DNA from: Squalus acanthias
Taxonomy: Eukaryota
Direction: 5' to 3'
Assembly (NCBI GenBank): GCA_030390025.1
Contig: CM059432.1
Coordinates: 36,272,001-36,336,000, forward strand
DNA: 64,000 bases
Shown: piece after piece, positions 8,590 through 63,577 of the stretch
Numbering within the stretch: the stretch's first letter is position 1
Layout of the letters: every line of letters starts with the position of its first letter
The notes under the pieces: generated by a model
Databases searched by the model: none
The model's input: only the letters and a program-made list of their open reading frames with translations
Told to the model about the DNA's origin: nothing
Translations under genes and position numbers: made by a program

Positions 8590-9855
8590 TTTGTTAAAGG
8601 TAAATCGTGTTTAACTAACCTAATTGAGTTTTTTGATGAGGTAACAGAGAGGGTTGATGAGGGCAATGCGGTTGATGTGGTGTACATGAACTTCCAAAAG
8701 GTGTTTGATAAAGTACCACATAATAGGCTTGCCAGCATAGTTGAAGCCCATGGAATAAAAGGGACAGTGGCAGCATGGATACGAAATTCGCTAAGTGACA
8801 GGAAACAGAAAGTAGCGGTGAACGGTTGTTTATCAGACTGGAGGAAGGTACACAGTGGGGTTCCCCAGGAGTCAGTACTAGGACCACTGCTTTTCTTGAT
8901 ATATATTAATGACTTAGATTTGGGTGTACAGGACACAATTTCAAAATTTACAGATGACACAAAACTTGGAAGTATAGTGAACAGTGAGGAGGATAGTGAT
9001 AGACTTCAAGAGGACAGACGGGCTGGTGGAATGGGCGGACACATGGCAGATGAAATTTAACGCAGAAAAGTACGAAGTGATACATTTTGGTAGGAAGAAC
9101 GAGGAGAGGCAATATAAACTAAAGGGTACAATCCTAAAGGGGGTGCATGAACAGAGAGTCCTGGGGGTATATGTGCACAAATCGTTGAAGGTGGCAGGGC
9201 AGGTTGAGAAAGCAGTTAAAAAAGCATAAGGGATCCTGGGCTTCATAAATAGAGGCATAGAGTTCAAAAGCAAGGAAGTTATGATGAACTTTTGTAAAAC
9301 ACTGGTTCGGCCTCAACTGGAGTATTGTGTCCAATTCTGGGCACGACACTTTAGGAAGGAAGTGAAGGCCTTCGAGAGGGTGCAGAAAAGATTTACAAGA
9401 ATGGTTCCAGGGATGAGGGACTTCAGTTTTGTGGATAGACTGGAGAAGCTGGGGTTGTTCTCCTTAGAGCAGAGAAGGTTGAGAGGAGATTTGATAGAGG
9501 TGTTCAAAATCATGAGGGGTCTAGACATAGTAGATAGAAAGAAACTGTTCCTATTGGCAGAAGGGTTGAGAACCAGAGGACACAGGTTCAAGGAGATTGG
9601 CAGAAGAACCAAAGGCGACATGAGGAAAAACTTTTTTACGCAGCGATCTGGCATGCTCTGCCTGAAACGTGGTGGAGGCAGATTCAATTGTGGCTTTCAA
9701 AAGGGAATTGGATAAGTACCTGAAGGAAAAAAATTTGCAGGGCTACAGAGAAAGGGCAGGGGAGTGGGACTAGTTGAAGTGCTCTTGCAGAGAGCTGGCA
9801 CGGGCTCGACAGGCAGAATTGCCTCCTTCTGTGCTGTAACCATTCCATGATTCTA
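8590..9855 (+). mobile_element. 5'-truncated, decayed CR1 LINE
   Basis: RT fragments FQKVFDKVPH, GVPQESVLGP and [11 protein letters not shown]; tail CCATGATTCTA. Confidence 0.92.
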
Positions 9856-10238
9856 GGTGGAAATAGGCGGTCTTAGTGATGGCATGGATATGTGGTCAGA
9901 AGCTCATCTCGGGGTCAAATACGAGACCAAGGTTGAAACAGTTTGGTTCAGCCTCAGACAGTTGCCAGAGAGAGGGATGGAGTCGATGGCTAGGGAACGA
10001 GATTTGTGGCGGGGACCAAAGTCAATGGCTTCCGTCTTCCCAATATTTAGTTGGAGGAAATTTCTGCTCATCGAGTACTGGATGTCGGACCAATTGAGAA
10101 AGGTGGTGGCGAGGTAGAGCTGGATGTCGTCAGCATACATGTGGAACCTAGAAACATAGAAGATAGGAGCAGGAGTAGGCCATTCGGCCCCTCGAGCCTG
10201 CTCCGCTATTTAATGAGATCATGGCTGATCATCCAAAT

Positions 10239-12900
10239 TCAGTACCCTGTCCCTGCTTTCTCCCCATATCCCTTGATCCCTTTAGCCTTAAGAAATATAT
10301 CTAACTCCTTCTTGAATATATTTAATGAATTGGCCTCAACTGCCTTTTGTGGTAGAGAATTCCACAGGTTCACCACTCTCTGGGTGAAGAAATTCCTCAT
10401 CTCTGTCCTAAATGGCTTACCCCTTATCTTTAGACTGTGACCCCTGGTTCTGGACTCGCCCGCCATCGGGAACATCCTTCCTGCACCTAGTCTGTCTAGT
10501 CCTGTTAGAATTTTATAAGTTTCAATGAGATCCCCTCTCATTCTTCGAAACTCCAGCGAATATAAGCCCAATCGACCCAATCTCTCCTCATACGTCATTC
10601 CTGCCATCCCAGGCATCAGTCTGGTGAATCTTCGCTGCACTCCCTCCATGGCAAGAACATCCTTCCTCAGATAAGGCGACCAAAACTGCACACAATACTC
10701 AAGGTGTGGTCTTACCAAGGGCCTGTACAACTGTAGCAAGACATCCTTGCTCCTGTACTCAAATCCTCTCGCTATGAAGGCCAACATACCATTTGCCTTC
10801 TTAACCGCCTGCTGCACCTGCATGCTTACCTTCAGCGACTGGTGCACAAGGACACCCAGGTCTCGTTGCACTTCCCCTTCTCCCAATCTATTGCCGCTCA
10901 GATAATAATCTGCCTTCCTGTTTTTGCGACCAAAGTGGATAACCTCGCATTTATCCACATTATACTGCATCTGCCTAATCACCCAACCTGTCCAAATCAT
11001 ACTGGAGTTTCTCGGCATCCTCCTCACAGCACACACGCCCACCCAGCTTTGTGTCGTCTGCAAACTTGGAGATATTACATCTAGTTCCCTCGTCTAGATC
11101 ATCAATATATATTGTGAATAGCTGGGGTCCCAGCACCAATCCCTGCGGTACCCCACTAGTCACTGCCTGCCACTCGGAAAAAGACGCGTTTATTCCAACT
11201 CTTTGCTTCCTGTCTGCCAACCAGTTCTCTATCCAAGTCAGTACCTTACCCCCAATCCCATGTGCTTTAACTTTGCACGCTAATCTCTTATGCGGGACCT
11301 TATCGAAAGCCTTCTGAAAGTCCAAATACACCACATCCACTGGTTCTCCCTTATCTATTCTACCAGTTACATCCTCAAAAAATTCCAGTAGATTAGTCAA
11401 GCACGATTTACCTTTTGTAAATCCATGTTGACTTTGTCCGATCCTGTCACTGTTTTCCAAGTGCTCTGCTATTACATCTTTTATAATGGATTCTAGCATT
11501 TTCCCCACTACCGATGTCAGGCTTACCGGTCTATAATTCCCCGTTTTCTCTCTACCACCTTTTTTAAATAGTGGGGTTACATTAGCTACCCTCCAATCCA
11601 TGGGAACTGTGCCTGAGTCTATAGAATTTTGGAAGATGACCAGCAATGCATCTACTATTTCTAGGGCCACTTCCTTAAGTACCCTAGGATGTAGATTATC
11701 AGGCCCTGGGGATTTATCGGCCTTCAATCCCATCAATTTCCCTAACACCATTTCCCTACAAATACTGATTTCATTCAGTTCCTCCCTCTCATTAGACCCT
11801 ATGTTCCCCGACATCTCTGGGAGGTTATTTGTGTCCTCCTTTGTGAAGACAGAACCAAAGTATGTATTTAATTGGTCAGCCATTTCTTTGTTCCCCATTA
11901 TAAATTCCCCTGATTCTGACTGCAAGGGACCTACGCTTGACTTCACCAATCTTTTTCTCTTCACATATCTATAGAAGCTTTTACAGTCAGTTTTTATGTT
12001 CCCTACAAGCTTACTCTAATACTCTATTTTCCCCCTCTTAATTAATCCTTTTGTCCTCCTTTGCTGAATCCTAAACTGCTCCCAATCCTCAGGTTTGCTG
12101 CTTTTTCTGGCCAATTTATATGTCCTCTCCTTGGATCTTACGCTATCCCTAATTTCCCTTGTTAGCCACGGTTGCACCACCTTTTTGTTTTATTTTTATG
12201 CCAGACAGGGATGAACAAATTCTGTCGTTCATCCATGCGATCTTTAAATGTTTGCCATTGCCTATCCACCGTCAACCCTTTAAGTAACGTTCACCAATCC
12301 ATCCTAGCTAACTCGCGCCTCATACCATCGTAGTTTCCTTTACTTAAATTCAGGACCCTAGTCTCTGAGTCAACTACTTCACTCTCCATCTTAATGAAGA
12401 ATTCTATCATATTATGATCACTCCTCCCCAAGGGGCCTCGCACAACAAGATTGCTAATCTCATTACATAATACCCAGTCTAAGATGGCCTGATCTCTAGT
12501 TGGTTCCTTGACATATTGGTCCAGGAAACCATCCCGTATACACTCTAGGAATTCCTCCTCCACAGTATTGTTACTAATTTGGTTAGCCCAAGCTATATGT
12601 AGATTAAATATTGAATACCCCGGATGTTGAATTCCCAGCCTTGGTCACCCTGGAGCCATGTCTCCATAATTCCAATTATATCATATCCGTTTACATCTAT
12701 TTGCACAGCTAATTCATCCTCGCATTAAGACACAAAGCCTTCAGGCTTGTTTTTTTAACACTCTTAGTCCTTTTAGAATTATTATTTACTGTGGCCCTGT
12801 TTGATTTACACACTTGATTTCTCTGCCTTCCACTTTTGCTTTTCTCCTTCCTGTCTTTTGCTTCTATCCTTGCTTCCCTTTCCTCTATCTCCCTGCACAG
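10239..12900 (-). pseudogene. CR1 ORF2 (partial APE endonuclease plus RT), frameshifted
   Basis: PTRDQAILD and LGRSDHNMI (endonuclease); [12 protein letters not shown] and FADD (RT); split into ORFs 12291-12563, 10975-11964 and 10239-11063. Confidence 0.9.
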
Positions 12901-13866: not shown

Positions 13867-14427
13867 GACTTACCCTTTAATTAATTCAAATTAAATTAAA
13901 TCAAATCAAAACCACTAATTACACTACAATTAAATGATATACTCAAGGGCCCTTGTTTACTAGCAGTCCCCGCTACACAACAGAGACCCTAGAAACTATA
14001 AACCACAAAATTTAAGTTTGGAAAAAAGCGAGAAAGAGAGAAATACTCACCAACCAATCACTTACCTGCTTTCTGGTGACGTCACACTTCGATTACTTTT
14101 TACTTCTCTCTCTCCCCGCCCCTTAAATCCTCGGTCTCTGCGCTCAGTCTCCACCCAGGGCCGCTCTCGCTGCTGCCACCGGTGAGTCTGGGCTGCACTC
14201 TCGCTCCCCGCTCCTTAAATCCTCAGTCTCTGCGCTCAGTCTCTACCCAGGGCCCCGCTCTCGCTGCTGCCGCCAGTGAACCTGACGTCTTTTGGATGAT
14301 GTCGCCAAGGGGCAGCATGTAGATGAGAAATAGGAGGGGGCCAAGGATAGATCCTTGGGGGACACCAGAGGTAACAAAAGGGAGGGGCTGCAATCTTCTG
14401 CCTTGGGATATAAATATGAAATACAGG

Positions 14428-16080: not shown

Positions 16081-17128
16081 AAGCGACAGATACAAATTCA
16101 ATGCCAATGCACCATGCAGCACTCTCCAGCCCAGGTCTCAGTGATGCTAGGGAGGATCCCCAATTACAGGGTTTTCAACTAGGAATGTTTCCTGCTGGTT
16201 AGTAGGATATTTTCCAAATTATGCAGAGGTGGAAGATGAGGATGAGGAAGAGGAGAGGGTGCAGTAGCAGGAAACAGAGGATGTCCCCCTCCATCGAGTG
16301 GAATCTCCAGTAATTATTTCTCTACTCACCACCTGCATTGTTACCTCTGGACTCCCCTAAGGATCAATCTTTGGGCTCTCCCTTACATGCTGCTCCTTGA
16401 GGCATCATCTGTATACGTGGGAAAAGATCCATGTGAAGGAGGGCGAGATCAAGTGGAACAGGTCTTTGCCCATCTAACTGAGTCAGGGCAGAGTGTGTTT
16501 TTTAGTTCATAGTTGGACATAAACCCAAAGCATTCGGGTGTCCAAAGTTATCTTTGCAACAAGGGCTTGTTTCTCTCTGGCCAAATACTGCAATCATTTT
16601 GTGCCAGCAATTGAATGTTGGCCAGGACACTAGTACTCACCTGCTCTTCTAATAGTTCTTTTACATCCATCAGGTTTGACCACACTCCCTCAGTATTGCA
16701 CTGAAATATCACCCTAAATTACATGCTGAAGTCTCTGGTGGGATAGAATGTTCGATCTTATGATTTAGAGGCCACTGAACCAAACTGGCATCTTTCGAAA
16801 ATCTGCCTTTTATTACATTGAACCAATGTCACTGTTCTCGCCAACCTCCCTTGGCTGCCACAACAACAACTTGCATTTATTTATATAGCGCCTTTAACGT
16901 AGTAAAATCTCCCAAGGCACTTCCATCACCATGGAAGCATAGGCTGATCCTTCAGTGTAGTACTAGCGTGAGTCGGAGTTTTCAATAAAGGAAGGGGAGG
17001 GGAAGGAAATCCTGCTAAGCTTTGCAAATTTGTTCCAGGGTTGTCAAAATACGGAATGCAAGTTGCAGAGTTTAAAAAACCTGTAGTACTTAAATAAAGG
17101 CTACTTATAATAACACCAGAAAATTCTT

Positions 17129-17299
17129 ATACAAAAGCAAAATACTGTGGATGCTGGAAATCTGAAATAAAAAATGAAAATGCTGGAAATACTCAGCAGG
17201 TCAGGCAGCATCTGTGGAGAGAGAAACAGAGTTAACGTTTCACGTTTCAGGTCGATGACGGTCGTCAGACCGTTTCTGACCGAAGGTCATCGACCTGAA
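17129..17299 (-). mobile_element. Penelope-like terminal fragment with a short inverted copy and hammerhead-like motif
   Basis: 14-bp TSD ACCAGAAAATTCTT (17115-17128, 17300-17313); same sequence as the 3' end of the PLE at 61467; inverted pair 17244-17259 / 17286-17301. Confidence 0.85.
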
Positions 17300-17429
17300 A
17301 CCAGAAAATTCTTTATGCCAACAAGATTGAATCTCCCTTATATAGGGTGGGAGGGGGGTTGGTTTGGAAATGGTTTGGGTGTCAGTTTGATGGACGCCTC
17401 CTTCCTTCTCAACCTAATTTGCTGCACTG

Positions 17430-23065: not shown

Positions 23066-23848
23066 TGTTAATGGAGTTAGGTTGCAGATCAGCCGTGATC
23101 TCATTCAATGGCAGAACAGGCTCAAGGGGCTTCAATTTTCTAGCAGGGAATGCTGAGGCCAATTGCAATGCTGCTACTGTCTTTCCAGCACAGATAAGTT
23201 CACTCCACACAGGCCTGGCTACTTCTGTATGGCTCAGTTCCACACTAACTATCGCACTGAGCTATCAACCTTAATTGAATGGAGGAAAAGAAAGCAGAAA
23301 CATTAAGGCTGTTGATCTGGTTATGAAGTCTGTTTGATGAGTGGGTGCAGAGCACAAATTGAGATGCTGCTTTTCAACATTTGTTTTACCTGAGCTGCTG
23401 ACTAGAGTACCTCATCAGTGATGTTTGAGGATCAAAGCAGTTCATGTGTGTTTACATTAGTGAGATGTTAGTAGATAGATAACAGCCTGTGATGCTGAGG
23501 GTAAGCTGTGGACCAGAAAATTATACTTTCAAAAATAATGTTTTTTTGTACAGTTATGCACTTTAGATAACAAGTTCCAAAAGAATGAATGTAGGGAATA
23601 TTCTATCTCCCCTCTTCCTCCCCCCCCCCCCCCCCAAGTTTTATTCATTCCTTCCTGAAGGTGCTGACTCATGGACTCATGCTGGGGTATGGTTCAGGTC
23701 AACTTTGTTCAGTCCGTAGCATTCTTGCCTCATGAGTCAGAAGGTTGAATCCTCACTCCAGACTTTGAGTACAGAATCTAAATTAATCCTTGGGCATGAT
23801 ACTGAGGAAGTGCTCCATTGTTAGCGGTGGCTTCCTTTAAATAAGATG

Positions 23849-24184
23849 TCACGCTACAGAACGTGACTTGACATCGTTGTCTGTCTTTCCAGTTTAAAAA
23901 AAAACAAACACAAAAAACAAACCCAAATGGAGAGGATATGCAGACAGCAGGTTTTGACACGTTGGACCCCCTGGGACACATCTCATTGTCTTGGCTGTGC
24001 TCTTGGTGTGTCTTTGATGTAAGGAAAGATTGTATCTCTGCATTTTCTTTGTGTTTATATTCTGTGAATTTTTGTAGATTCACTCATAGTAACTTTACCT
24101 GAAGAAGGGGTGATCGATAGCTCCGAAAGCTTGTAATTTTAAATAAATCTGTTGGACTATAACCTGGTGTTGTGCGACTTCTCA
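23849..24184 (+). mobile_element. Non-autonomous Penelope-like 3' terminal unit (single arm)
   Basis: 13-bp TSD TTTAAATAAGATG (23836-23848, 24185-24197); homologous to the palindrome arms at 25474-25885 and 52168-52289. Confidence 0.85.
24095..24136 (+). ncRNA. Minimal hammerhead-ribozyme-like motif
   Basis: UUAC-CUGAAGA-A-GGGGU(GAUCGAUA)GCUCC-GAAA-GC-UU-GUAA. Confidence 0.65.
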
Positions 24185-25107
24185 TTTAAATAAGATGGTA
24201 AGCAGAGTTCCCACCTGCCTATTGAGGTTGCAGTTGAAGATCCCATGGTGCTAGTCAATCCCCTGGTGTCCTGGCCAAAATACTTAAATTAACTATCTGA
24301 CCACTCATCCTGTTGGTGGTCTTGCTGTGCACAAAATGCTTACCCCATTTGTTTACATAGAAGCAGTTGGCACAAAAAGTCAACTGTATATCGAATCATA
24401 GAATGGTTACAGCACAGAAGCAGGCCATTCGGCCCGTCGAGCCCGTGCTGGCTCTCTGCAAGAGCACTTCAGCTAGTCCCACTCCCCCACGCTTTCCCTG
24501 TAGCCCTGCAAATTTTTTTCCTTCAGGTACTTATCCAATTCCCTTTTGAAAGCCCCGATTGAATCTGCCTCCACCACCCTTTCAGGCAGTGCATTCCAGA
24601 TCCTAACCACTCGCTGCGTAAAAAAAGTTTTCTTCATGTCGCCTTTGGTTCTTCTGCCAATCACCTTAAATCTGTGTCCTCTGGTTTTTGACCCTTCCGC
24701 CAATGGGAACAGTTTCTCTCTCTCTCCTCTCTCTCTCATGATTTTGAACACCTTTTATCAAATCTCCTCTCAACCTTCTCTGCTTTAAGGAGAACAACCC
24801 CAGCTTCTCCAGTCTATTCACGTAACTGAAGTCCCTCGTCCCTGGAACCATTCTTGTAAATCTTTTCTGCACCCTCTCTAAAGCCTTCACATCCTTCCTA
24901 AAGTGCGGTGCCCAGAATTGAACACAATACTCCAGTTTTGTCCAGTGTTTTATACAGGTTCATCATAACTTCCTTGCTTTTGAACTCTATGCCTCTATTT
25001 ATGAAGTCGATAGTGGTCATGATGCGGAGATGCCGGTGTTGGACTGGGGTGGACAAAATTGAGAGGTCGCACAACACCAGGTTATAGTCCAACAGTTTTA
25101 TTTGAAA

Positions 25108-25149
25108 TCACAAGCTTTCGGAGCTATCGATTGCTCCTTCCTCAGGTGA
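25108..25149 (-). ncRNA. Minimal hammerhead-ribozyme-like motif (left arm)
   Basis: Reverse complement of 25797-25838. Confidence 0.7.
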
Positions 25150-25796
25150 AGTAAATTAGATACAGAATCGCCAAAGCATATATAGATAGAAAACAAAGCA
25201 TGTGTACTTTACAATTGCAGACCAATAAATTAAATCATCCTGACTATCTGCCGAGGTGTGATAAAGTTAATTAAGTCAGCCAGGAAGGTACCACATCAAA
25301 GACATAGCAAGATACAACTGAGACAATGAGGTGTAGTCGCAGGGGTTCGAACGTGTCAAAAGCTGCCGTCTGTATGTAAAACGAAAAGCTTTAAAAAAAA
25401 TTTTACTTTTTTACTGGGAAAATTTTTACTTTTTTACTGGGAATCACATCTGTGAACAAGCTATCGACGACTCGAGTCGTCGTTAGCTTGTTCACAGATG
25501 TGATTCCCAGTAAAAAAGTAAAAATTTTCCCAGTAAAAAAGTAAATTTTTTTTAAAGCTTTTCGTTTTACATACAGACGGCAGCTTTTGACACGTTCGAA
25601 CCCCTGCGACTACACCTCATTGTCTCAGTTGTATCTTGCTATGTCTTTGATGTGGTACCTTCCTGGCTGACTTAATTAACTTTATCACACCTCGGCAGAT
25701 AGTCAGGATGATTTAATTTATTGGTCTGCAATTGTAAAGTACACATGCTTTGTTTTCTATCTATATATGCTTTGGCGATTCTGTATCTAATTTACT

Positions 25797-25838
25797 TCAC
25801 CTGAGGAAGGAGCAATCGATAGCTCCGAAAGCTTGTGA
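25797..25838 (+). ncRNA. Minimal hammerhead-ribozyme-like motif (right arm)
   Basis: UCAC-CUGAGGA-A-GGAGC(AAUCGAUA)GCUCC-GAAA-GC-UU-GUGA. Confidence 0.7.
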
Positions 25839-27309
25839 TTTCAAATAAAACTGTTGGACTATAACCTGGTGTTGTGCGACCTCTCTATTTATGAAGCCCA
25901 GGATCCCGTAAGCTTTTTTTAACAGCTTTCTCAACCTGCCCTGCCACCTTCAACGATTTGTGTACTTTAAGATGTTTCTGAGACTTAATGAGATGCAATT
26001 TTTCCAGGTGGTGAAATTAAACTATTCTACTAAAGAGGCATCATTGCCAAGCCCAATCTGTTCTTGACTGATACCCACATGTACTTTCCAATAGAGATTA
26101 TAGAGTATACTAAATACCCAATAAGGAGCTAGGGGTGTTTGAGTGTCCTGACTATTGGCAGAACCGTAAAGGTTGTTTTTCCTTTTAATAGGCTGTTTTC
26201 TTTTGGCAGTGCAAATGGATTAGAACCTTTCCCCACCTGTTCTTTGCTGAGTGACAGGTATATTTCTTTAATATCTTCTATTCTTTCTCTTCCCCCTCCC
26301 ATGTTCCCTTCCACCTTCACTTTTACTCCCCTAACCAGAGATTGTCTAGGTGAGCTGTTGCTGCTACCGATTCACATGGACTGTGGAATAGGAGGAATGA
26401 TTTATTTGCTTTTATTTGTTGTTTTTCTCTTATCTGAGAAATGGAAAAACATAAAAAAAATTAAGGAACAGCAAATGGCCATTCCGTATACTTAGCCTGG
26501 CATCCAATTGCATTTGTTTTGTTATTTCTGCTACCTTACATGGTAAATTATTCCAAACATTTATCATCCTTTAACTGAACAATTTTTTCTACCCTGTGTT
26601 TTAAATGACTGTTTATTAATTTAAATCCATGTCGTCTGGCCCTGATGGCCTGACTTACTTTGAAATAATATTCTGAGTTCATGTTCATGTCACCTATATC
26701 ATTCAATACTTTATAATATATTGATAAGGTTCTTCCCTTCCCCTCCCCAACCCATGTTCTAGACTGTAGCACTTAGTTTATCTAACTTTCTCTAATCTAT
26801 CCTTGTAGCTCATCTTCTTTGCACTTACTGCTCTTCTCTGCACCTTTAATGTATCTATATCCCTTTTGAAGTGTAGTTATCAAAACTGTGCACAGTACTT
26901 TGTGTGGATATCCGGTAAAGGTGGGTTCAGTGTCAGATGTAGCGCTTACTGTTGTGGCTCATGTGAAGAACAGACTTTGTACACTAGTGCTCCACTATTC
27001 TGGCTATATATCCTAAAATTTTTTGTTTTTTCCTCCATTGCTTCTTCACATAACGACTTTGAAAATAGTGAATCCACTGTGCATTTCAGATCCCCCTATT
27101 TGCTATTTGTTATATCTATCTTACTCAGTTTCTCCCCCATCATTTTTTTTACCCAGTATGCAGTAGTACATCTTGTCCTCTTGCTCATAAGTTGGTATTT
27201 TCTAATATTATGGGAGCTACTGTTAAATTATCCATCACAGAAGAACATTTCTGCTAATATAAAGATTAGCACTATCGTTTTCTGCATGACTGTTCTCTGG
27301 TGATCTTGT

Positions 27310-37050: not shown

Positions 37051-39159
37051 CATAGAAGATCGGAGCAGGAGTAGGCCATTCGGCCCCTCGAGCCTGCTCC
37101 GCCATTTAATGAGATAATGGCTGATCATCCAAATTCAGTACCCTTTCCCTGCTTTCTCCCCATATCCCTTGATCCCTTTAGCCTTAAGAAATATATCTAA
37201 CTCCTTCTTGAATATATTTAATGAATTGGCCTCAACTGCCTTCTGTGGTAGAGAATTCCACAGGTTCACCACTCTCTGGGTGAAGAAATTCCTCCTCATC
37301 TCTGTCCTAAATGGCTTACCCCTTATCCTTAGACTGTGACCTCTGGTTCTGGACTCCCCCGCCATCGGGAACATCCTTCCTGCATCTAGTCTGTCTAGTC
37401 CTGTTAGAATTTTATAAGTTTCAATGAGATCCCCTCTCATTCTTCGAAACTCTAGCGAATATAAGCCTAATTGACCCAATCTCTCTCCATACGTCATTCC
37501 TGCCATCCCAGGTATCAGTCTGGTAAATCTTCGCTGCACTCCCTCCATGGCAAGAACATCCTTCCTCAGATAAGGCGACCAAAACTGCACACAATACTCA
37601 AGGTGTGGTCTCACCAAGGCCTTGTACAACTGCAGCAAGACATCCTTGCTCCTGTACTCGAATCCTCTTGCTATGAAGGCCAACATACCATTTGCCTTCT
37701 TAACCGCCTGCTGACCTGCATGCTTACCTTCAGCGACTGGTGCACAAGGACTCCCAGATCTCGTTGCACTTCCCCTTTTCCCAATCTATTGCCGTTCAGA
37801 TAATCTTTCTTCCTGTTTTTGCCACCAAAGTGGATAACCTTGCATTTATCCACATTATACTGCATCTGCCCAATCACCCAACCTGTCCAAATCATACTGG
37901 AGTTTCTCGGCATCCTCCTCACAGCACACACGCCCACCCAGCTTTGTGTCGTCTGCAAACTTGGAGATATTACATCTAGTTCCCTCGTCTAGATCATTAA
38001 TATATATTGTGAATAGCTGGGGTCCTAGCACCGATCCCTGCGGTACCCCACTAGTCACTGCCTGCCACTCGGAAAAAGACCCGTTTATTCCAACTCTTTG
38101 CTTCCTGACTGCCAACCAGTTCTCTATCCAAATCAGTACCTTACCCCCAATCCCATGTGCTTTAACTTTGCACGCTAATCTCTTATGCGGGACCTTATCG
38201 AAAGCCTTCTGAAAGTCCAAATACACCACATCCACTGGTTCTCCCTTATCTATTTTCCCAGTTACATCCTCAAAAAATTCCAGTAGATTAGTCAAGCACG
38301 ATTTACCTTTTGTAAATCCATGTTGACTTTGTCCGATCCTGTCACTATTTTCCAAGTGCTCTGCTATTACATCTTTTATAATGGACTCTAGCATTTTCCC
38401 CACAACCGATGTCAGGCTTAATTCCCCGTTTTCTCTCTACCACCTTTTTTAAATAGTCGGGTTACATTAGCTACCTTCCAATCCATGGGAGCTGTGCCTG
38501 AGTCTATAGTATTTTGGAAGATGACCAGCAATGCATCTACTATTTCTAGGGCCACTTCCTTAAGTACCCTAGGATGTAGATTATCAGGCCCTGGGGATTT
38601 ATCGGCCTTCAATCCCGTCAATTTCCCTAACACCATTTCCCTACAAATACTGATTTCTTTCAGTTCCTCCCTCTCATTAGACCCTATGTTCCCGACATCT
38701 CTGGGAGGTTATTTGTGTCCTCCTTTGTGAAGACAGAACCAAAGTATGTATTTAATTGGTCAGCCATTTCTTTGTTCCCCATTATAAATTCCCCTGATTG
38801 TGACTGCAAGGGACCTACGCTTGACTTCAATCTTTTTCTCTTCACATATCTATAGAAGCTTTTACAGTCAGTTTTTATGTTCCCTGTAAGCTTACTCTAA
38901 TATTCTATTTTCCCCCTCTTAATTAATCCCTTTGTCCTCCTTTGCTGAATCCTAAACTGCTCCCAATCCTCAGATTTGCTGCTTTTTCTGGCCAATTTAT
39001 ATGTCCTCTCCTTGGATCTTATGCTATCCCTAATTTCCCTTGTTAGCCACGGTTGAGTCACCCTTTTTGTTTTATTTTTATGCCAAACAGGGATGAACAA
39101 ATTCTGTAGTTCATCCATGCGATCTTTAAATGTTTGCCATTGCCTATCCACCGTCAACC
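37051..39159 (-). mobile_element. 5'-truncated CR1, same subfamily as 10150-14277
   Basis: Near-identical RT peptides (ORFs 37135, 37855, 38418). Confidence 0.93.
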
Positions 39160-39632
39160 TAGATGTAATATCTCCAAGTTTGCAGATGACACAAAACTGG
39201 GTGGGCGTGTGTGCTGCGAGGAGGATGCCGAGAAACTCCAGGATGATTTGGACAGGTTGGGTGATTGGGCAGAAGCGTGGCAGATGCAATATAATGTGGA
39301 TAAATGCGAGGTTATTCACTTTGGTGTCAAAAACAGAAAGGCAGATTATTATCTGAATGGCAATAGATTGGGAGAAGGGGAAGTGCAACGAGACCTGGGT
39401 GTCCTTGTGCACCAGTCGCTGAAGGTAAGCATGCAGGTGCAGCAGGCGGTTAAGAAGGCAAATGGTATGTTGGCCTTCATAGCGAGAGGGTTTGAGTACA
39501 GGAACAAGGATGTCTTGCTACAGTTGTACAGGGCCTTGGTGAGACCACACCTTGAGTACTGTGTGCAGTTTTGGTCGCCTTATCTGAGGAAGGATGTTCT
39601 TGCCATGGAAGGAGTTCAGCGAAGATTCACAA
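39160..39632 (+). mobile_element. Inverted CR1 segment abutting the previous element
   Basis: CNISKFADD...VQRRFTR; inverted homologue of ~37523-37979. Confidence 0.9.
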
Positions 39633-39654
39633 GGCCAGCATTTCTTGCCCATCC

Positions 39655-44340: not shown

Positions 44341-45254
44341 ATTGTCCTCTGACCAAGTATGTGAATTGCTTCCTTCCAGGCGTTTCTCACTACCATTCTT
44401 ACATGGGCATCTTGTGTCAAATCCAAAACTGGACAGGATACAGATGAGGCAGATGGGGGGGGGGGGATTGTGACTTGAGTTGTAATGTTTTCTTTCCTGT
44501 TGATTGATTACCTCAGTAGCTAAAGTTTCCACATCATAAGACAAAGCAATAAGTGGGGTTGAAAATGGCTTTTATCAGAAGTTTAATGTCCTGTTTAAGT
44601 TTTAGAAATTTCTGAATAATCTACTTAAAGATGGACTTTATGGCCCAAACAGGCAACCGCCTAATGGATGTGTACAGGAGTGTGAGACATGTAGATTGGC
44701 AGTATTCTCGCCACCACTGACCCTGCTTTTCCTACCTTCTTGAAATTGAAGGAAGTAGAAAAATCATACCTTTTTTGTTTTAAGGTAAGCTTTAATTGTG
44801 TGAAACCATTTGCTTTTAGGTGTAGTGGTGTAGCAGTCTAGCTGAGAAACATCCTTTTCAACACCTGTGTGGACAAATAAAGCTGGGTTGTGGAACACAT
44901 CTGTGCTCATGTGGCAGTTAGCTGCCCCATGTCTAATTCTGAGAAATTTATACTGCTATACAGTAATATAGAAGTGGTTCAGGACACTTAAACACACTGA
45001 TATTTAAGAGGGCGCAACGTAAACCGTATTCCCAACATGATTTTCTCCAGTTAATCTCCCAAAATGAATCCTCCCCCCTCCCTGGGTAGGTCTTGACTCT
45101 TGGGGTATGATTTCATGGGGGCTGGCAACCCCTGGGATTTTGCTCAAGTTGCCATCCCTGTGCCAGGAGGTCACTTGATCTGGGCCAAGTCCATTCCTGT
45201 TCTACTCTTCGTGGGGTACTGTAACATAATCAGCAGTAGGAATGCTGGCTGATT

Positions 45255-46330
45255 GTTTCCCCCCCCCCCCCCTTCTCCACTTCCTTCCCCCCCCCTTCTC
45301 CACTTCCTTCCCCCCCCCCTCTCCACTTCCTTCCCCCCCCCCCTTCTCCACTTCCTTCCCCCCCCCCCTTCTCCACTTCCTTCCCCCCCCCCTTCTCCAC
45401 TTCCTTCCCCCCCCCCTTCCACCCTTCCCCCCCCCTTCTCCACTTCCTTCCCCCCCCCTCTCCACTTCCTTCCCCCCCTCCCACTTCCTTCCCCCCCCCT
45501 TCTCCACTTCCTTCCCCCCCCCTTCTCCACTTCCTTCCCCCCCCCTTCTCCACTTCCTTCCCCCCCCTTCTCCACTTCCTTCCCCCCCCTTCTCCACTTC
45601 CTTCCCCCCCCCCCACTTCCTTCCCCCCCCTTCTCCACTTCCTTCCCCCCCTTCTCCACTTCCTTCCCCCCCTTCTCCACTTCCCCCCCCCCCTCCACTT
45701 CCCCCCCCCTTCTCCACTTCCTTCCCCCCCTTCTCGACTTCCTTCCCCCCCCTTCTCCACTTCCTTCCCCCCCTTCTCCACTTCCTTCCCCCCTTCTCCA
45801 CTTCCCTTCCCCCCCCTTCTCCACTTCCTTCCCCCCCCTTCTCCACTTCCTTCCCCCCCCTTCTCCACTTCCTTCCCCCCCCCTTCTCCACTTCCTTCCC
45901 CCCCCCTTCTCCACTTCCTTCCCCCCCCCTTCTCCACTTCCTTCCCCCCCCCTTCTCCACTTCCTTCCCCCCCCTTCTCCACTTCCTCCCCCCCCTTCTC
46001 CACTTCCTTCCCCCCCCCTTCTCCACTTCCTTCCCCCCCCCCTTCTCCACTTCCTTCCCCCCCCCCTTCTCCACTTCCTTCCCCCCCCCCTTCTCCACTT
46101 CCTTCCCCCCCCCCTTCTCCACTTCCTTCCCCCCCCCCTTCTCCACTTCCTTCCCCCCCCCCTTCTCCACTTCCTTCCCCCCCCCCTTCTCCACTTCCTT
46201 CCCCCCCCCCTTCTCCACTTCCTTCCCCCCCCCCCTTCTCCACTTCCTTCCCCCCCCCCCTTCTCCACTTCCTTCCCCCCCCCTTCTCCACTTCCTTCCC
46301 CCCCCCTCTCCACTTCCTTCCCCCCCCGCC
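45255..46330. repeat. Polypyrimidine minisatellite, unit ~TTCTCCACTTCCTT(C)6-11
   Basis: About 1.07 kb of tandem ~20-26-nt units, almost all C/T on +. Confidence 0.97.
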
Positions 46331-48689
46331 CTGCCTTTCTCCTTTACTTGCCCCCCCTCGCCTTTCTCCTTTACTTGCCCCTTCGTTGGGGAAGGGGGGG
46401 GGCTCTGAGGTCCATTTTACAGCTCAAGTGCGGCTGAGTTCAGCTAACTTGATGGAAGATTGAACCTGGTGATTACTGCAATGAAGTATCCTTCCTTGTA
46501 TGCTTGGAAGTAGTGCTACACGTGCGTAGGGTTTTAAAAAAAAAAATTGACGTTGAAGTTGGCTGCAGTGATGACGATGGTGGCAGCCGGTGTAGGATGT
46601 CACATTCTAAGTATGTGGTGGTTCTGAATTTCACTGCATTGAAGATCGTATTAACTGTTGACTTTAACATGACTGCCCAGAGGTAGGTAAAGAAAAAACT
46701 TGCAGGTGATCTGAGGTGTATGTTTGTGACATGACTTGTGTGTCTAGTTCAAATGGTTACCCTGTGTTACCTCTCTGGCAGCAAAATAGATGAGGTGTTG
46801 GATGCTTTAAAAAAAAAAACAACTTTACATACAGCAGGAGCAGCTCAAACTGTGTAATGAAGGCCTGTCTGAGTCAGGATGGTGAGATACTGGTTTTAGT
46901 TTACCATTGAGTGATATTCTATATTTAGCTGAAAGGACAAATGTCAGTGCTCAAGCTGTGCAGCTTCCACTAGAGCATGAAATGGGGTCTGTGTGACTGT
47001 CTATGTTCATTTTCACTGCTGTATGAAACCCCTCTAGTATGGCCAGGTTGACAGCTACCGTTTTGCCATGGAGCAGGAGGCTGTGCCCCAGCTGCTCCAC
47101 AAGTACAAAGTGATTGGTTTCGGCATCAGATGCTGGTGCAGGGCACAGATAGGTGTTTTGTTTTTCCATTTCTCGGCCATCCCAGTTTTTATTTGTGAAT
47201 GTATGGGGGTGGGGTGGCGGGAGGGAGAAGGAGGAAGCATTGGTTGCTATGATTCAGATTGTAGCAAGTGTTCCAGATGATATTAAGGGAGGCTAGGAAC
47301 CATTGTTTCCCTGCTGCCTATCCCCTGAAACAAATGGGAACACGAGCATGTCTTGTGTATAGAATATTAAATAGTAAGAGATATTTTGTAATGCTGTAGT
47401 TCATTTGAGTAGTTTCTGAAAGTTGAGGCCCCCAGATTGTATTAAAGCTTCCTTCACCTTCATTTAATGTGGAACTTGGTGATTACCCTGCTGTCTTTTA
47501 AAACTCATCCCAATTGACATTATGCAAAGGGTATAATTACCCCCCTTGGTGTAACTGTAAAGATCACTCGACTGTTGTGTTGCCGCATCTAAAGGGCAGG
47601 AATGCCATGCCACCCAGTTTTGGTTTGAGGTACACTTTTCTGCCATCTCCTATGCCCAGATGTCCGCATGGCACCATTTCCCCCTCTGAGTCAGAAGGTT
47701 GTGGTGTCAATCCCCACTCCAAGGCTTGAGCGTGTTTGAAGAAGAGCAGAGTTTCTGCCACCATTACGCCTTGATCAATGCCACCAAAAAATCAGATTAA
47801 CTCCTCCTTGGCCTCTCCAGTGGAACTCCAACGTCTTCCCCCACTGCTAAAGCTGCCTTCGAGAAGCTCCGTTTCCTCTTTTCAGCCGCACATTATTCCT
47901 CCCCACCCCAACAACTGTCCAAGTCCATCCAATGCTTGAATATTGTTCCCATGTCTAGGAAGGCTCTTCTAGTGCCAGTGACCCCCTGCTGTAAAGTGTG
48001 TGTGTGTGATCACAGGATTGAGTTTGGTTCTGACATCCCCTCCACCTTTGATCTGTTTAGTATCTGGATCATGTGTGAAGACTGGTTATTTGGGGTGAAA
48101 TAGGCTGCCAGGGATCTTGGAGCTGTACCCAGCAAGAGTCGGCACTCTTCATGGAGAGAAGAGAGAAATTGGAAATAGAGGGATGTCTGTAAACTCTGTT
48201 CATTTCTCAGCACCAATGAAATCAGCTGGCAATGGAAACTTAATAGTTGCCAATGAGCTATATAATAACTAGTGTTAAAATGTGCCTCTCCACAGGGTTT
48301 AGCTTTTGTTTGTGTCATGCTTAGTCAGATTTATTGTAATTACATACCACACTCTCCTACAAGAAGCCTGAAATCATTGAGACAGTACTCCTCTTGTATG
48401 TCAGCACTACATTTAACCCCTCGTGGCCTTGTTGCTGATGATGCTGTGATGACGGTTGTGTCTAGTGTGAAGTCTGCTTCAGTATGGGTTGAAGCAGATG
48501 TGAAACTGATGGCTGTGCTGATGGGGGTTGCAGGAGTGACTGGTGTTGAATAATACCTGAGTGCAAGCCTCAGGGTGTTATGCACTTGAGATCAGCTATG
48601 ATCTCAAACCAGAAGGCATTCACTCAGGCTCAGTCAGTATTTGTTGTCACTTCGTAAACGGGAAGAGGAGAGGAAAATAAAAGCTTTGT

Positions 48690-52025: not shown

Positions 52026-52094
52026 GACTGCTGACACTGTCAAGTATGAGAAGTCGCACAACACCAGGTTATAGTCCAACAGATTTATTTGATT

Positions 52095-52133
52095 TTACAA
52101 GCTTTCGGAGCAGTTCGCTCCTTCGTCAGGTAA
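52095..52133 (-). ncRNA. Minimal hammerhead-ribozyme-like motif (left arm)
   Basis: Reverse complement of 52202-52240. Confidence 0.7.
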
Positions 52134-52201
52134 GTTTAGCAGTGAGAGAATCTCCCAGAATTCACAATTGTGAATTCTGGGAGATTCTCTCACTGCTAAA
52201 C

Positions 52202-52240
52202 TTACCTGACGAAGGAGCGAACTGCTCCGAAAGCTTGTAA
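52202..52240 (+). ncRNA. Minimal hammerhead-ribozyme-like motif (right arm)
   Basis: UUAC-CUGACGA-A-GGAGC(GAACU)GCUCC-GAAA-GC-UU-GUAA. Confidence 0.7.
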
Positions 52241-52681
52241 AATCAAATAAATCTGTTGGACTATAACCTGGTGTTGTGCGACTTCTCATTTTTGTCCACC
52301 CCAGTCCAACGCCGGCATCTCCACATCATGACTGTCAAGTATTGCACACGCAATCCTTGAGGAGCTACTATGGAGCTGCTGGCTTCCATGGAACTATACC
52401 ACAGCTTGAATCAGCATCGTAAAGCTATGAAGTTTAAAAGATGGGACAGGAACACTGACAACAAACTTAACATGATCTTGGGATTTCAGAAGCCTAAACA
52501 GATTCAGAGAGATCCCTGTTTTCTTTCAATTTATGTTGCAACTGAGCAAGTGGTTGTTGGGATCTGCTGGTTTCTTGGTAAGGTTTTTAGCAATTTCATT
52601 CTTTTTATTCATGAGAGCTATGATCAGATGACTGGCATTGTATCTGACTTCAGTTGCTTTACATTACCAATCTTGGCTAGC

Positions 52682-61466: not shown

Positions 61467-63203
61467 ATAACAGAAAACGCTGGAAAAACTCAGCAGGCGA
61501 GGCAGCATCCGTGGAGAGAGAAACAGAGTTAACGTTTCAGGTTGAAGACCTTTTGTCAGAACTGGAAATAGCAGGAAATGAAATAGATTTAAGGCAAGGA
61601 TAAAGCTGGGAAAAGGGGGAGGGGATGAAAGAACAAAAGGAGAGATTAAGAGATATTAAGAGATGATCAAGGTGTTAATGTGACAGGTTGAGGCTAAAAG
61701 AAGTGTGAAATGCACTAGCAGAATGAAGGACAGCTGCCAGTTTCTAGGAGGGAAAAAAAAGGGGGGGGGGCAAACAAAAGGGTGGATGAAAAAAATTAAA
61801 TATAAATGTGATTGGGGCTGAGGTTATGATCTAAAATTGTTGAACTCGATATTGAGTCCAGAGGGCTCTAGGGTGCCTAAACGAAAGATGAGGTGCTGTT
61901 CCAATGTAGAGGAGACCACATCGTGAGCAGTGAATACAGTATACTAAATTGCAGGAAGTACAAGTAAATCGCTGTTTCACCTGGAAGGGGTGTTTTGGGG
62001 CCCTGGACAGTGGGAAGAGGGGAGGTATAAGGGCATGTGTTGCATCTCCTGCGCTTGCACGGGAAGGTGCCGGGCGAAGGGGAAGGGGTGCTGGGGGGTG
62101 GTAGAGGAGTGGACTAGGGTGTCGCGGAGGGAGCGGTCCCTGCGGAATGCTGAAAGGGGAGGTGAGGGGAAGATGCGTTTGGTGGTGGGATCACGCTGGA
62201 GGTGGCGGAGGATGATCCGTTGAATGTGGAGGCTGGTGGGGTGAAAGGTGAGGACAAGGGGAACTCTATCGTGGTTCCGGGAGGGAGGGCAGAAGTGCGG
62301 GAGATAGAACGGACACGGTCGAGGGCCGTGTCGACCACGGTAGAGGGGAATCCTCAGTTGAGGAAAAAGGAAGACATGTCGGAAGCACTGGTATGGAAGG
62401 TGGCATCATCAGAGCAGATGCGGCGGAGACGGAGAAACTGGGAGAATGGAATAGAGTCCTTACAGGAGGCGGGGTGGGAGGAAGTGTAGTCCAGGTAGTT
62501 GTGGGAGTCAGTAGGCTTGTAGTGACTGTTAGTCAATAACCTATCCCCAGAGATGGAGACGGAAAAGTTGAGGAAGGGAAGAGTCGGAGATGGACCATGT
62601 GAAGGTGAGGGAAGGGTGGAAATTGGAAGCATAGTGAATTAAATGTTCTAGTTCAGGGCGAGAGCAGGAGATGGCACCGATACAGTCATCAATGTACCGG
62701 AAAAAGAGGTGAGGGAGGGGACCCGAGTAGGACTGGAACAAAGAGTGTTCCACATATCCCACGAAAAGGCAGGCATAGCTAGGACCCATGCGGGTACCCA
62801 TAGCAACACCTTTAATTTGGAGGAAATGGATGGAGTCAAAGGAGAAGTTGTTCAATGTGAGAACAAGTTCAGCCAGGCGGAGGAGGGTGGTGGTGGATGG
62901 GGACTGGTTGGGCCTCTGTTCAAGGAAGAAGCGGAGCGCCCTCAGGCCATCCTGGTGGGGAATGGAGGTGTAGAGGGATTGTACGTCCATAGTGAAAAGG
63001 AGGAGGTTGGGGCCAGGAAACTGGAAACTGTTAAAATGGCGGAGGGCGTCGGAAGAGTCGCGGATGTAGGTGGGAAGAGACTGGACAAGGGGAGAAAAAA
63101 TAGAGTTGAGATAGGAAGAGATAAGTTCCGTGGGGCAAGAACAGGCTGAAACGATGGGTCTACCGGGGCAGTCCTGTTTGTGGATCTTGGGAAGGAGGTA
63201 GAA
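61467..63203 (-). mobile_element. 5'-truncated Penelope-like element (RT plus GIY-YIG)
   Basis: 11-bp TSD GCTAATTCTGT (61456-61466, 63204-63214); terminal unit at 61467-61565 with a mutated hammerhead-like core CUGACAA..GAAACGUU. Confidence 0.93.
61824..63203 (-). pseudogene. Penelope reverse transcriptase and GIY-YIG endonuclease, disrupted
   Basis: FYLLPKIHK, PGRPIVS, MDVQSLYTSIP, GVAMGTRMGPSYA and RYIDD; NLVYCIHCSRCGLLYIG (~61900-61950) is joined by a deletion to EQHLIFRLGTLEPSGLNIEF. Confidence 0.9.
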
Positions 63204-63577
63204 GCTAATTCTGTGTTTCCTGTACGAGGACACCTAAATCTCTCAACACCAATATTTAATAGTTTCTCGCCATTTAAAAATATTCTTCCTACCAAAATGA
63301 ATAACCTCACATTTCCCCACGTTATACTCCATCAGCCACCTTATTGCCCACTCACTTAACCTGTTTATATCCCTTTTCAAAATCGTGCTATTATAGTATA
63401 CTGTCTTTCCATATTAGTCTTCCCAAAGTGTATCACTTCACACTTCTCTGCATTGAACTCCATCTGCTATGCTTCTGCCAATTTCACAATCCTGTCTGTC
63501 ATCCTGAAGTCTACAACTTTCCTCATCACTATCTACTATGCTACCAAGTTTCGTATCATTTTTTAAAAATTCAGTCA

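Follow-up and report, generated by a model that had tools for sequence, protein, structure and literature searches.

The palindrome and its target site

The window analyzed here (the whole stretch of DNA, 64 kb long) contains at 25061–25885 a palindrome whose two arms meet with zero spacer, the axis lying between 25473 and 25474. Global alignment of the left arm (25061–25473, 413 nt) with the reverse complement of the right arm (25474–25885, 412 nt) gives only two differences, a T opposite T at 25464/25483 and an additional T in the left arm at 25401, and thereby reproduces the single mismatch and the 1-nt indel which a first-pass annotation of this DNA had reported. The mismatch encloses the centre (25464–25483), where an uninterrupted palindromic core of 18 bp is found at 25465–25482. 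When the window was shuffled by mononucleotides, the longest arm without a spacer reached 7–9 bp in 30 out of 30 cases. The left arm contains a tandem duplication (25396–25443, plus strand) which includes the 1-nt indel between the arms and has its mirror copy at 25504–25549 (plus strand); the earlier observation that this duplication is mirrored in both arms holds, but its period is 23 nt and not about 20 nt. Only the left arm continues into a tail, which is located at 25007–25060 on the minus strand and is 54 nt long. The palindrome and its insertion as described here are confirmed and real. Folded as DNA, the 825-nt unit is predicted to form one single hairpin with 409 pairs and −514.5 kcal/mol, and formation of a cruciform appears plausible from this model.

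At both junctions of the insertion we find the direct repeat CTCTATTTATGAAG of 14 nt, beginning at 24993 and at 25883. The right arm ends with the same 3 nt with which this repeat begins, and the target site duplication (TSD) is therefore 11–14 nt long. The left copy (24993–25006, plus strand) has its unambiguous core at 24996–25006, and in the right copy (25883–25896, plus strand) the first 3 nt are common with the end of the arm. The 11-mer which had been given as TSD before is exactly this unambiguous core, whereas the full junction repeat is longer. The insertion resides in a LINE, which we take to be of the CR1 type from its protein motifs. Left of the insertion the LINE fragment on the minus strand (24393–24992) matches the paralogous copy at 9241–9853 with 88% over 625 nt, and to the right the LINE resumes in register on the same strand (25897–25965; 94% to 9173–9254 over 83 nt). 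The paralogous copy at 9173–9853, located on the opposite strand, contains the target once and runs uninterrupted through the site, and when the flanks of the insertion are joined 615 of 694 columns match this copy, again in register. The target present only once in the paralog and the 14-nt junction repeat bear out the proposal that the palindrome entered the LINE as one TSD-flanked unit, which looks young. The TSD of this unit has an AT content of 71%, and all four TSDs of the units delimited in the window range from 67 to 85% AT compared with 55% for the window.

Hammerhead motifs and identity of the element

Each arm contains a minimal type I hammerhead core, in the left arm at 25116–25145 on the minus strand and in the right arm at 25801–25830 on the plus strand. 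The motif consists of CUGAGGA, an extra A, a 5-bp stem and then GAAAGCUU, and is closed by a 4-bp stem; in the right arm the 5-bp stem II is followed by GAAA and GCUU, and stem I is formed by UCAC/GUGA. The first-pass annotation did not mention these motifs. A scan of the window for hammerheads returned six motifs, all of them within these elements, compared with 0–2 in each of 20 shuffles. Between subfamilies stem I is changed on both sides, from UCAC/GUGA to UUAC/GUAA. A search against Rfam gave 0 matches at the gathering score. From the strands of the hammerheads it follows that the sense of the element is minus in the left arm and plus in the right arm. Hence, the 5′ ends of the element meet at the axis and both 3′ ends face the target DNA: the left arm is a 5′-truncated 3′ end (pLTR region) of a Penelope-like element (PLE) with its 3′ end leftward, and the right arm is the same truncated end pointing rightward, where it forms the tail-less short end. 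These hammerheads, recognized from sequence alone, resemble those described for metazoan PLEs (PMC4209133) in having a type I core with an extra base after A9, a G10.1–C11.1 pair and self-complementary positions 15.2–16.2, and the pairs of PLE hammerheads 100–700 bp apart on opposite strands reported there have the same arrangement as here. Stem II, however, comprises 5 bp compared with 7–8 bp in Schistosoma (PMC4209133).

The tail on the minus strand ends with ATG ACC ACT ATC GA, the ATG being located at 25020–25018, and in a related unit at 52 kb an ATG is likewise found 45 nt after the sequence TGCGAC. Possibly the ATG of the tail marks the first codons of the element's ORF. Within the unit at 25 kb there is no ORF, and we found no RT or endonuclease ORF for its family. 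Among 150 PLE-type proteins, collected with a query from another family, 0 match the frames of the unit or the expected start or end motif. We also considered the first codons of a solo copy (MSRYRT-stop) and the last codons of the tail as matching the ends of PLE ORFs; the same 150 proteins contained no match, which is a weak test given their origin from the other-family query.

The layout of the unit is the published inverted-pLTR layout of PLEs after truncation has removed the ORF. Adineta vaga PLEs have inverted pLTRs, mostly head-to-head, an optional tail on one of them, TSDs of 8–10 bp and palindromes at the inverted junction, with 18-bp and nearly perfect 38-bp palindromes at the 5′ ends of the pLTR; pLTR and tail reach into the first ORF codons (PMC3846280). 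The unit is similar to Pen2a, Pen2 and Pen3a of this species in its head-to-head inverted pLTRs, its junction palindrome and a one-arm tail which possibly reaches into the first ORF codons (PMC3846280). In contrast to these elements the ORF is wholly lost by truncation, so that equal arms and one zero-spacer palindrome of 825 bp result, and the TSD is 11–14 nt instead of 8–10 bp (PMC3846280). An adjacent inverted 5′-truncated copy together with a one-sided tail of 30–40 bp is named as characteristic of PLEs, the tail being attributed to endonuclease resolution (PMC8557442); with 54 nt the tail here is longer than the published 30–40 (PMC3846280, PMC8557442). The unit also resembles the Poseidon element PAc of Anolis carolinensis (PMC11167929) in the hammerhead near the end, the two alternative ends which define the tail and the AT-rich targets. 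The ORF of PAc starts inside the hammerhead (PMC11167929), whereas here the core and the candidate ATG, which follows downstream, are about 95 nt apart.

The insertion thus combines a head-to-head truncated copy, a one-sided tail, a short AT-rich TSD and a pLTR hammerhead, as is known for EN+ Penelope-like insertions. We are highly confident that the unit stems from one PLE retrotransposition into an AT-rich site of an older LINE, composed of two head-to-head 5′-truncated 3′ ends with a one-sided tail and a TSD of 11–14 nt. The arm alignment, the hammerheads and the published PLE layout all agree with the view of the first-pass annotation that an inverted Penelope-like end with a one-sided tail is present.

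Other classes of elements were considered as well. MITEs have symmetric ends, a short TSD of fixed length and a fixed internal structure. We rejected a MITE or a DNA transposon with terminal inverted repeats, as the tail is one-sided, the TSDs in the window measure up to 14, 12, 13 and 14 nt and the centres differ. Non-LTR retrozymes carry their hammerhead units in tandem head-to-tail repeats (10.64898/2026.07.22.740005); the units here are head-to-head or solo, and this class was rejected, too. Searches of metagenome contigs and of viral contigs with patterns of the family each retrieved 0 loci, and the 22 matches in prokaryote genomes were discarded as chance, the best match being just 17–37 nt in 22 out of 22.

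Related units in the window and in public reads

The head-to-head layout was found in three of the four TSD-flanked units that we delimited in the window. At 52046–52289 there is a perfect palindrome of 244 bp with 122-bp arms, 0 differences and zero spacer. The complete unit spans 52036–52342 with the axis at 52167/52168; its right arm bears a tail of 41–44 nt, its TSD measures at most 12 nt, and it belongs to a sister subfamily of the 25 kb unit (88% over 137 nt). The solo copy at 23849–24184 (336 nt; 23836–24197 including the flanks) is enclosed by a 13-nt TSD and has no mirror arm; at its 5′ joint a possible microhomology of ATG was observed. In the 25 kb unit, the 52 kb palindrome and the solo copy the same TGCGAC precedes the short end, at a distance of 5, 7 and 6 nt, respectively (three out of three), and the centres of the two palindromes are found 413 nt (25 kb) and 122 nt (52 kb) from the short end.

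Another hammerhead-bearing family is represented by the head-to-head unit at about 17129–17301 (17115–17313 with flanks), which has a tail of about 115 nt on the left and a TSD of up to 14 nt. Its short arm stops directly after the hammerhead core and its centre is imperfect, with a 5-nt loop and an asymmetric patch. The 3′ end of this family recurs at 61473–61561, behind a broken, 5′-truncated PLE-type ORF on the minus strand (61470–63290), in which an RT and then a remnant of a Cys-containing GIY-YIG domain are interrupted by several frameshifts and stops. The region 61.9–63.2 kb matches RT and GIY-YIG proteins and, with the 17 kb type repeat at its end, is assigned to the other family; downstream of the ORF a decayed hammerhead-like motif and the tail of the 17 kb family are present. 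Since two further units of the same layout are found in the window, the inverted layout is routine for these elements and the 25 kb unit is not a one-off. The two further units (52 kb and 17 kb) had been missed in the first-pass annotation.

Several other repeats were seen in the window. Two young LINE copies at 10155–12277 and 37051–39159 are 96% identical over 2.1 kb, and the latter is accompanied at 39159–39633 by an additional inverted piece of this LINE, resembling a LINE 5′ inversion. A fragment of a DDE_Tnp_4 transposase, presumably of the Harbinger type, is located at 2547–2822 with a gapped inverted repeat upstream (1131–1197). Furthermore, a low-complexity tandem repeat of about 1.2 kb with purine/pyrimidine skew and several open frames occupies 45170–46460, and a tandem pair of 82 nt (90% identical) is found at 14106–14279.

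Public read data comprised 24 listed runs, five of which, from two samples of organism A, contain at least half of the words. Four of the 24 runs were aligned at 85% likeness to 23700–25500, a range which comprises the left flank and one arm and extends 27 nt beyond the axis. Organism A is represented by two samples (runs X1 and X3), and in both of them the body of the arm is a very abundant repeat with many variants, and the sequence of the family is abundant up to the centre. In X1 the summed depth, which is not a copy number, declines from the 3′ end toward the axis. The last bin (25469–25500) is deep as well, a depth that mirrored placement could equally give. At position 25349 the family has predominantly T, with a summed depth of 495,320 out of 507,869 in X1 and 463,844 out of 500,256 in X3, yet both arms of the 25 kb unit carry a G here (mirror position 25597). 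As this rare G is common to both arms, they derive from a single source or one arm served as template for the other, and the palindrome is not the result of two chance insertions. In runs X10 and X14 (organisms C and D) most of the six arm-body bins between 25164 and 25500 were without cover, which is not proof of absence. In each of these two runs one contig aligns from 24185 on and continues for about 175 additional letters, and position 23784 is covered by a contig of equal depth. There is thus a hint of an empty site for the solo copy 23849–24184 in organisms C and D, the joint not being among the contigs listed.

Origin and meaning of the palindrome

How the tandem and inverted structures of PLEs are formed is called still undefined in PMC8557442, and the later steps of integration are described as "yet to be validated" (PMC11167929). 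We slightly prefer twin priming over self-priming of a folded-back cDNA and give it an about even chance of having made the palindrome. According to this model the element's endonuclease would nick both target strands 11–14 nt apart. The end of the top strand would prime cDNA synthesis at a distal start site and give rise to the arm with the tail, and the end of the bottom strand, pairing with the element at 7 out of 8 positions, would prime at a proximal start site and give rise to the short arm. The two cDNAs would be templated by one and the same RNA, or by RNAs from a single source copy, and would run to a common stop. Their ends would then be joined through a template jump, or because a short self-complementary terminus allowed them to anneal. 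Finally, each of the joined cDNAs would serve as template for the other, and a palindrome with zero spacer would result. The anatomy, the TSD, the short end and the rare allele are observed, and the nicking and extension of two strands and the two start sites are borrowed from the in vitro behavior of another PLE; the joining step would have to be postulated in every model.

The preference for twin priming is founded mainly on the position of the short end, which agrees with that of a solo copy, and on the zero spacer, which snap-back would hardly produce. That the element has its 3′ end toward the target on both sides of the unit also fits this model. The PLE protein of Anolis, a predicted dimer, nicks and extends both strands in vitro and starts synthesis at two adjacent sites, the interval between them being the tail (PMC11167929), and twin priming would make use of these activities. 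The spacer is zero in both palindromes of the family (two out of two), at unrelated positions, and an intramolecular snap-back requires an unpaired loop. Moreover, the solo copy 23849–24184 ends at the same site as the short arm, so that this short end can be used without a mirror arm. The position in the solo copy which matches the centre of the 52 kb unit shows no palindrome, which is weak support for twin priming as the solo copy is of another subfamily. Of 8 positions across the short junction of the 25 kb unit, 7 are shared by element and target; at the other three short ends examined 2–3 nt are shared. In L1 elements twin-priming inversions arise when both nicked strands prime cDNA, and one TSD surrounds the inverted structure; a single TSD also encloses the unit described here. 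L1 inversions are, however, asymmetric and are not known to duplicate the 3′ end, whereas the two arms of the present unit are mirror images which both begin close to the 3′ end.

Several observations speak against twin priming. Independent cDNAs should usually stop apart from each other and leave a spacer; we propose that equal stops would need either one shared RNA with strand displacement or trimming. PAc primed in vitro at a site which is non-homologous to the cut DNA (PMC11167929). That no RT or endonuclease ORF was detected for the unit's own family also weakens the argument. A literature search covering titles and the beginnings of abstracts, with most subscription papers and the older PLE reviews outside its scope, found no report on twin priming of inverted Penelope units.

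The most serious competitor, which was the reading of the first-pass annotation and which we consider possible though somewhat less probable, is that a cDNA primed at the tail side folded back at its truncated 3′ end and was copied back toward the tail; at the short site, endonuclease cutting or microhomology would then have linked this copy to the second end of the target. Self-priming is the published reading for the Adineta elements, there proposed on an antisense template (PMC3846280). With fold-back the symmetric arms, the common rare allele and the mirrored duplication come free, and the rare allele and the duplication suit it equally well as twin priming. The T–T mismatch 10 nt from the axis could belong to an imperfect hairpin which occurred naturally in the source element and primed the snap-back, the 38-nt centre of the palindrome having a predicted fold of −23.1 kcal/mol, and the 17 kb unit, even though it belongs to the other family, has retained a 5-nt loop. 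The short end, too, could be fixed by endonuclease resolution since it is adjoined by ATT, the sequence at which the Anolis enzyme prefers to cut (PMC11167929). On the other hand, an unpaired loop is absent from both units of the family, at two unrelated positions, and the copy would have to stop at the same base (±1) where the solo copy ends. Among the activities reported in the available part of PMC11167929 snap-back priming is not included.

It is quite improbable that a ready-made palindromic non-autonomous unit, MITE-like or retrozyme-like, was copied as a whole from a master locus. The abundance of the family up to the centre and the deep last bin in organism A would be in line with such a unit, and mirrored placement can explain the deep bin as well. 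The units of the window differ, however, in the position of the centre and in the side of the tail and a solo copy exists. The one-sided tail, together with the new TSD which each site possesses, suggests that the units are assembled when they insert.

We give very little credit to a solo insertion that was later made palindromic by a template switch during replication, or whose spacer and arm differences were erased by conversion between the arms: the near identity of the arms (2 differences in 413 nt here, 0 in 122 nt at 52 kb) would agree with this and equally well with youth, but the two arms lie precisely within the TSD, no mirrored host DNA is present and the second arm stops at the fixed short site of the family in two units out of two. 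Just as improbable is an artefact of assembly or of folded-back reads, be it for the whole second arm or for the perfect centre alone. Polishing can homogenize the arms of a palindrome, and among the matches listed for the four runs (23700–25500, 85% likeness) there is no read-level support across the centre and no contig specific for a junction, the centre or the empty site of this locus. A folded read would, however, have mirrored the tail and the left flank as well, which makes an artefact of the whole arm unlikely; in addition the LINE continues in register on the right, beyond the TSD, there are two differences between the arms, and the same layout recurs at 52 kb and at 17 kb, each time with its own TSD.

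The first-pass annotation had placed the hairpin in a presumed host pre-mRNA. This is not supported by our analysis, as a splice-site scan together with Pfam revealed no host exon, with the proviso that short exons would escape. The scan gave 44 candidates in the window, and none of the 13 listed was convincing. Pfam was run on 201 of the 209 stop-free frames of at least 52 codons in the non-repeated parts, the eight excluded frames at 13.1–13.9 kb overlapping a LINE ORF, and yielded four matches at E ≤ 0.01, none of them a host exon: a DDE transposase, a GDSL esterase, which we assume to be part of a LINE ORF1, and two weak matches below the cut-off. In a read-through transcript the one sense hammerhead should pair with its own antisense copy, so that no active ribozyme dimer would be formed. 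If transcribed, the hairpin of 410 bp would be a strong target for ADAR; heavy editing has been described for Penelope in a lizard and for a palindromic Harbinger in a frog (PMC5625713).

The locus itself is an ordinary dead stub of a retroelement, and its value is that of a clean data point. Young units with equal arms and base-exact joints could allow a census to separate twin priming from fold-back. We tentatively suggest, as a reading with somewhat less than an even chance, that the zero-spacer palindromes record a double target-primed reaction in vivo, in which a PLE dimer makes two copies of a single RNA, using its two start sites and both of the nicked strands, and then connects the cDNAs end to end. 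If this is true, the genome would hold a very large dated series of perfect palindromes (two in 64 kb), and such a series could settle the mechanism of PLE integration. It would also show how a vertebrate tolerates or erodes palindromes without spacer, and any of these palindromes that is transcribed would provide ADAR with long hairpin RNA.
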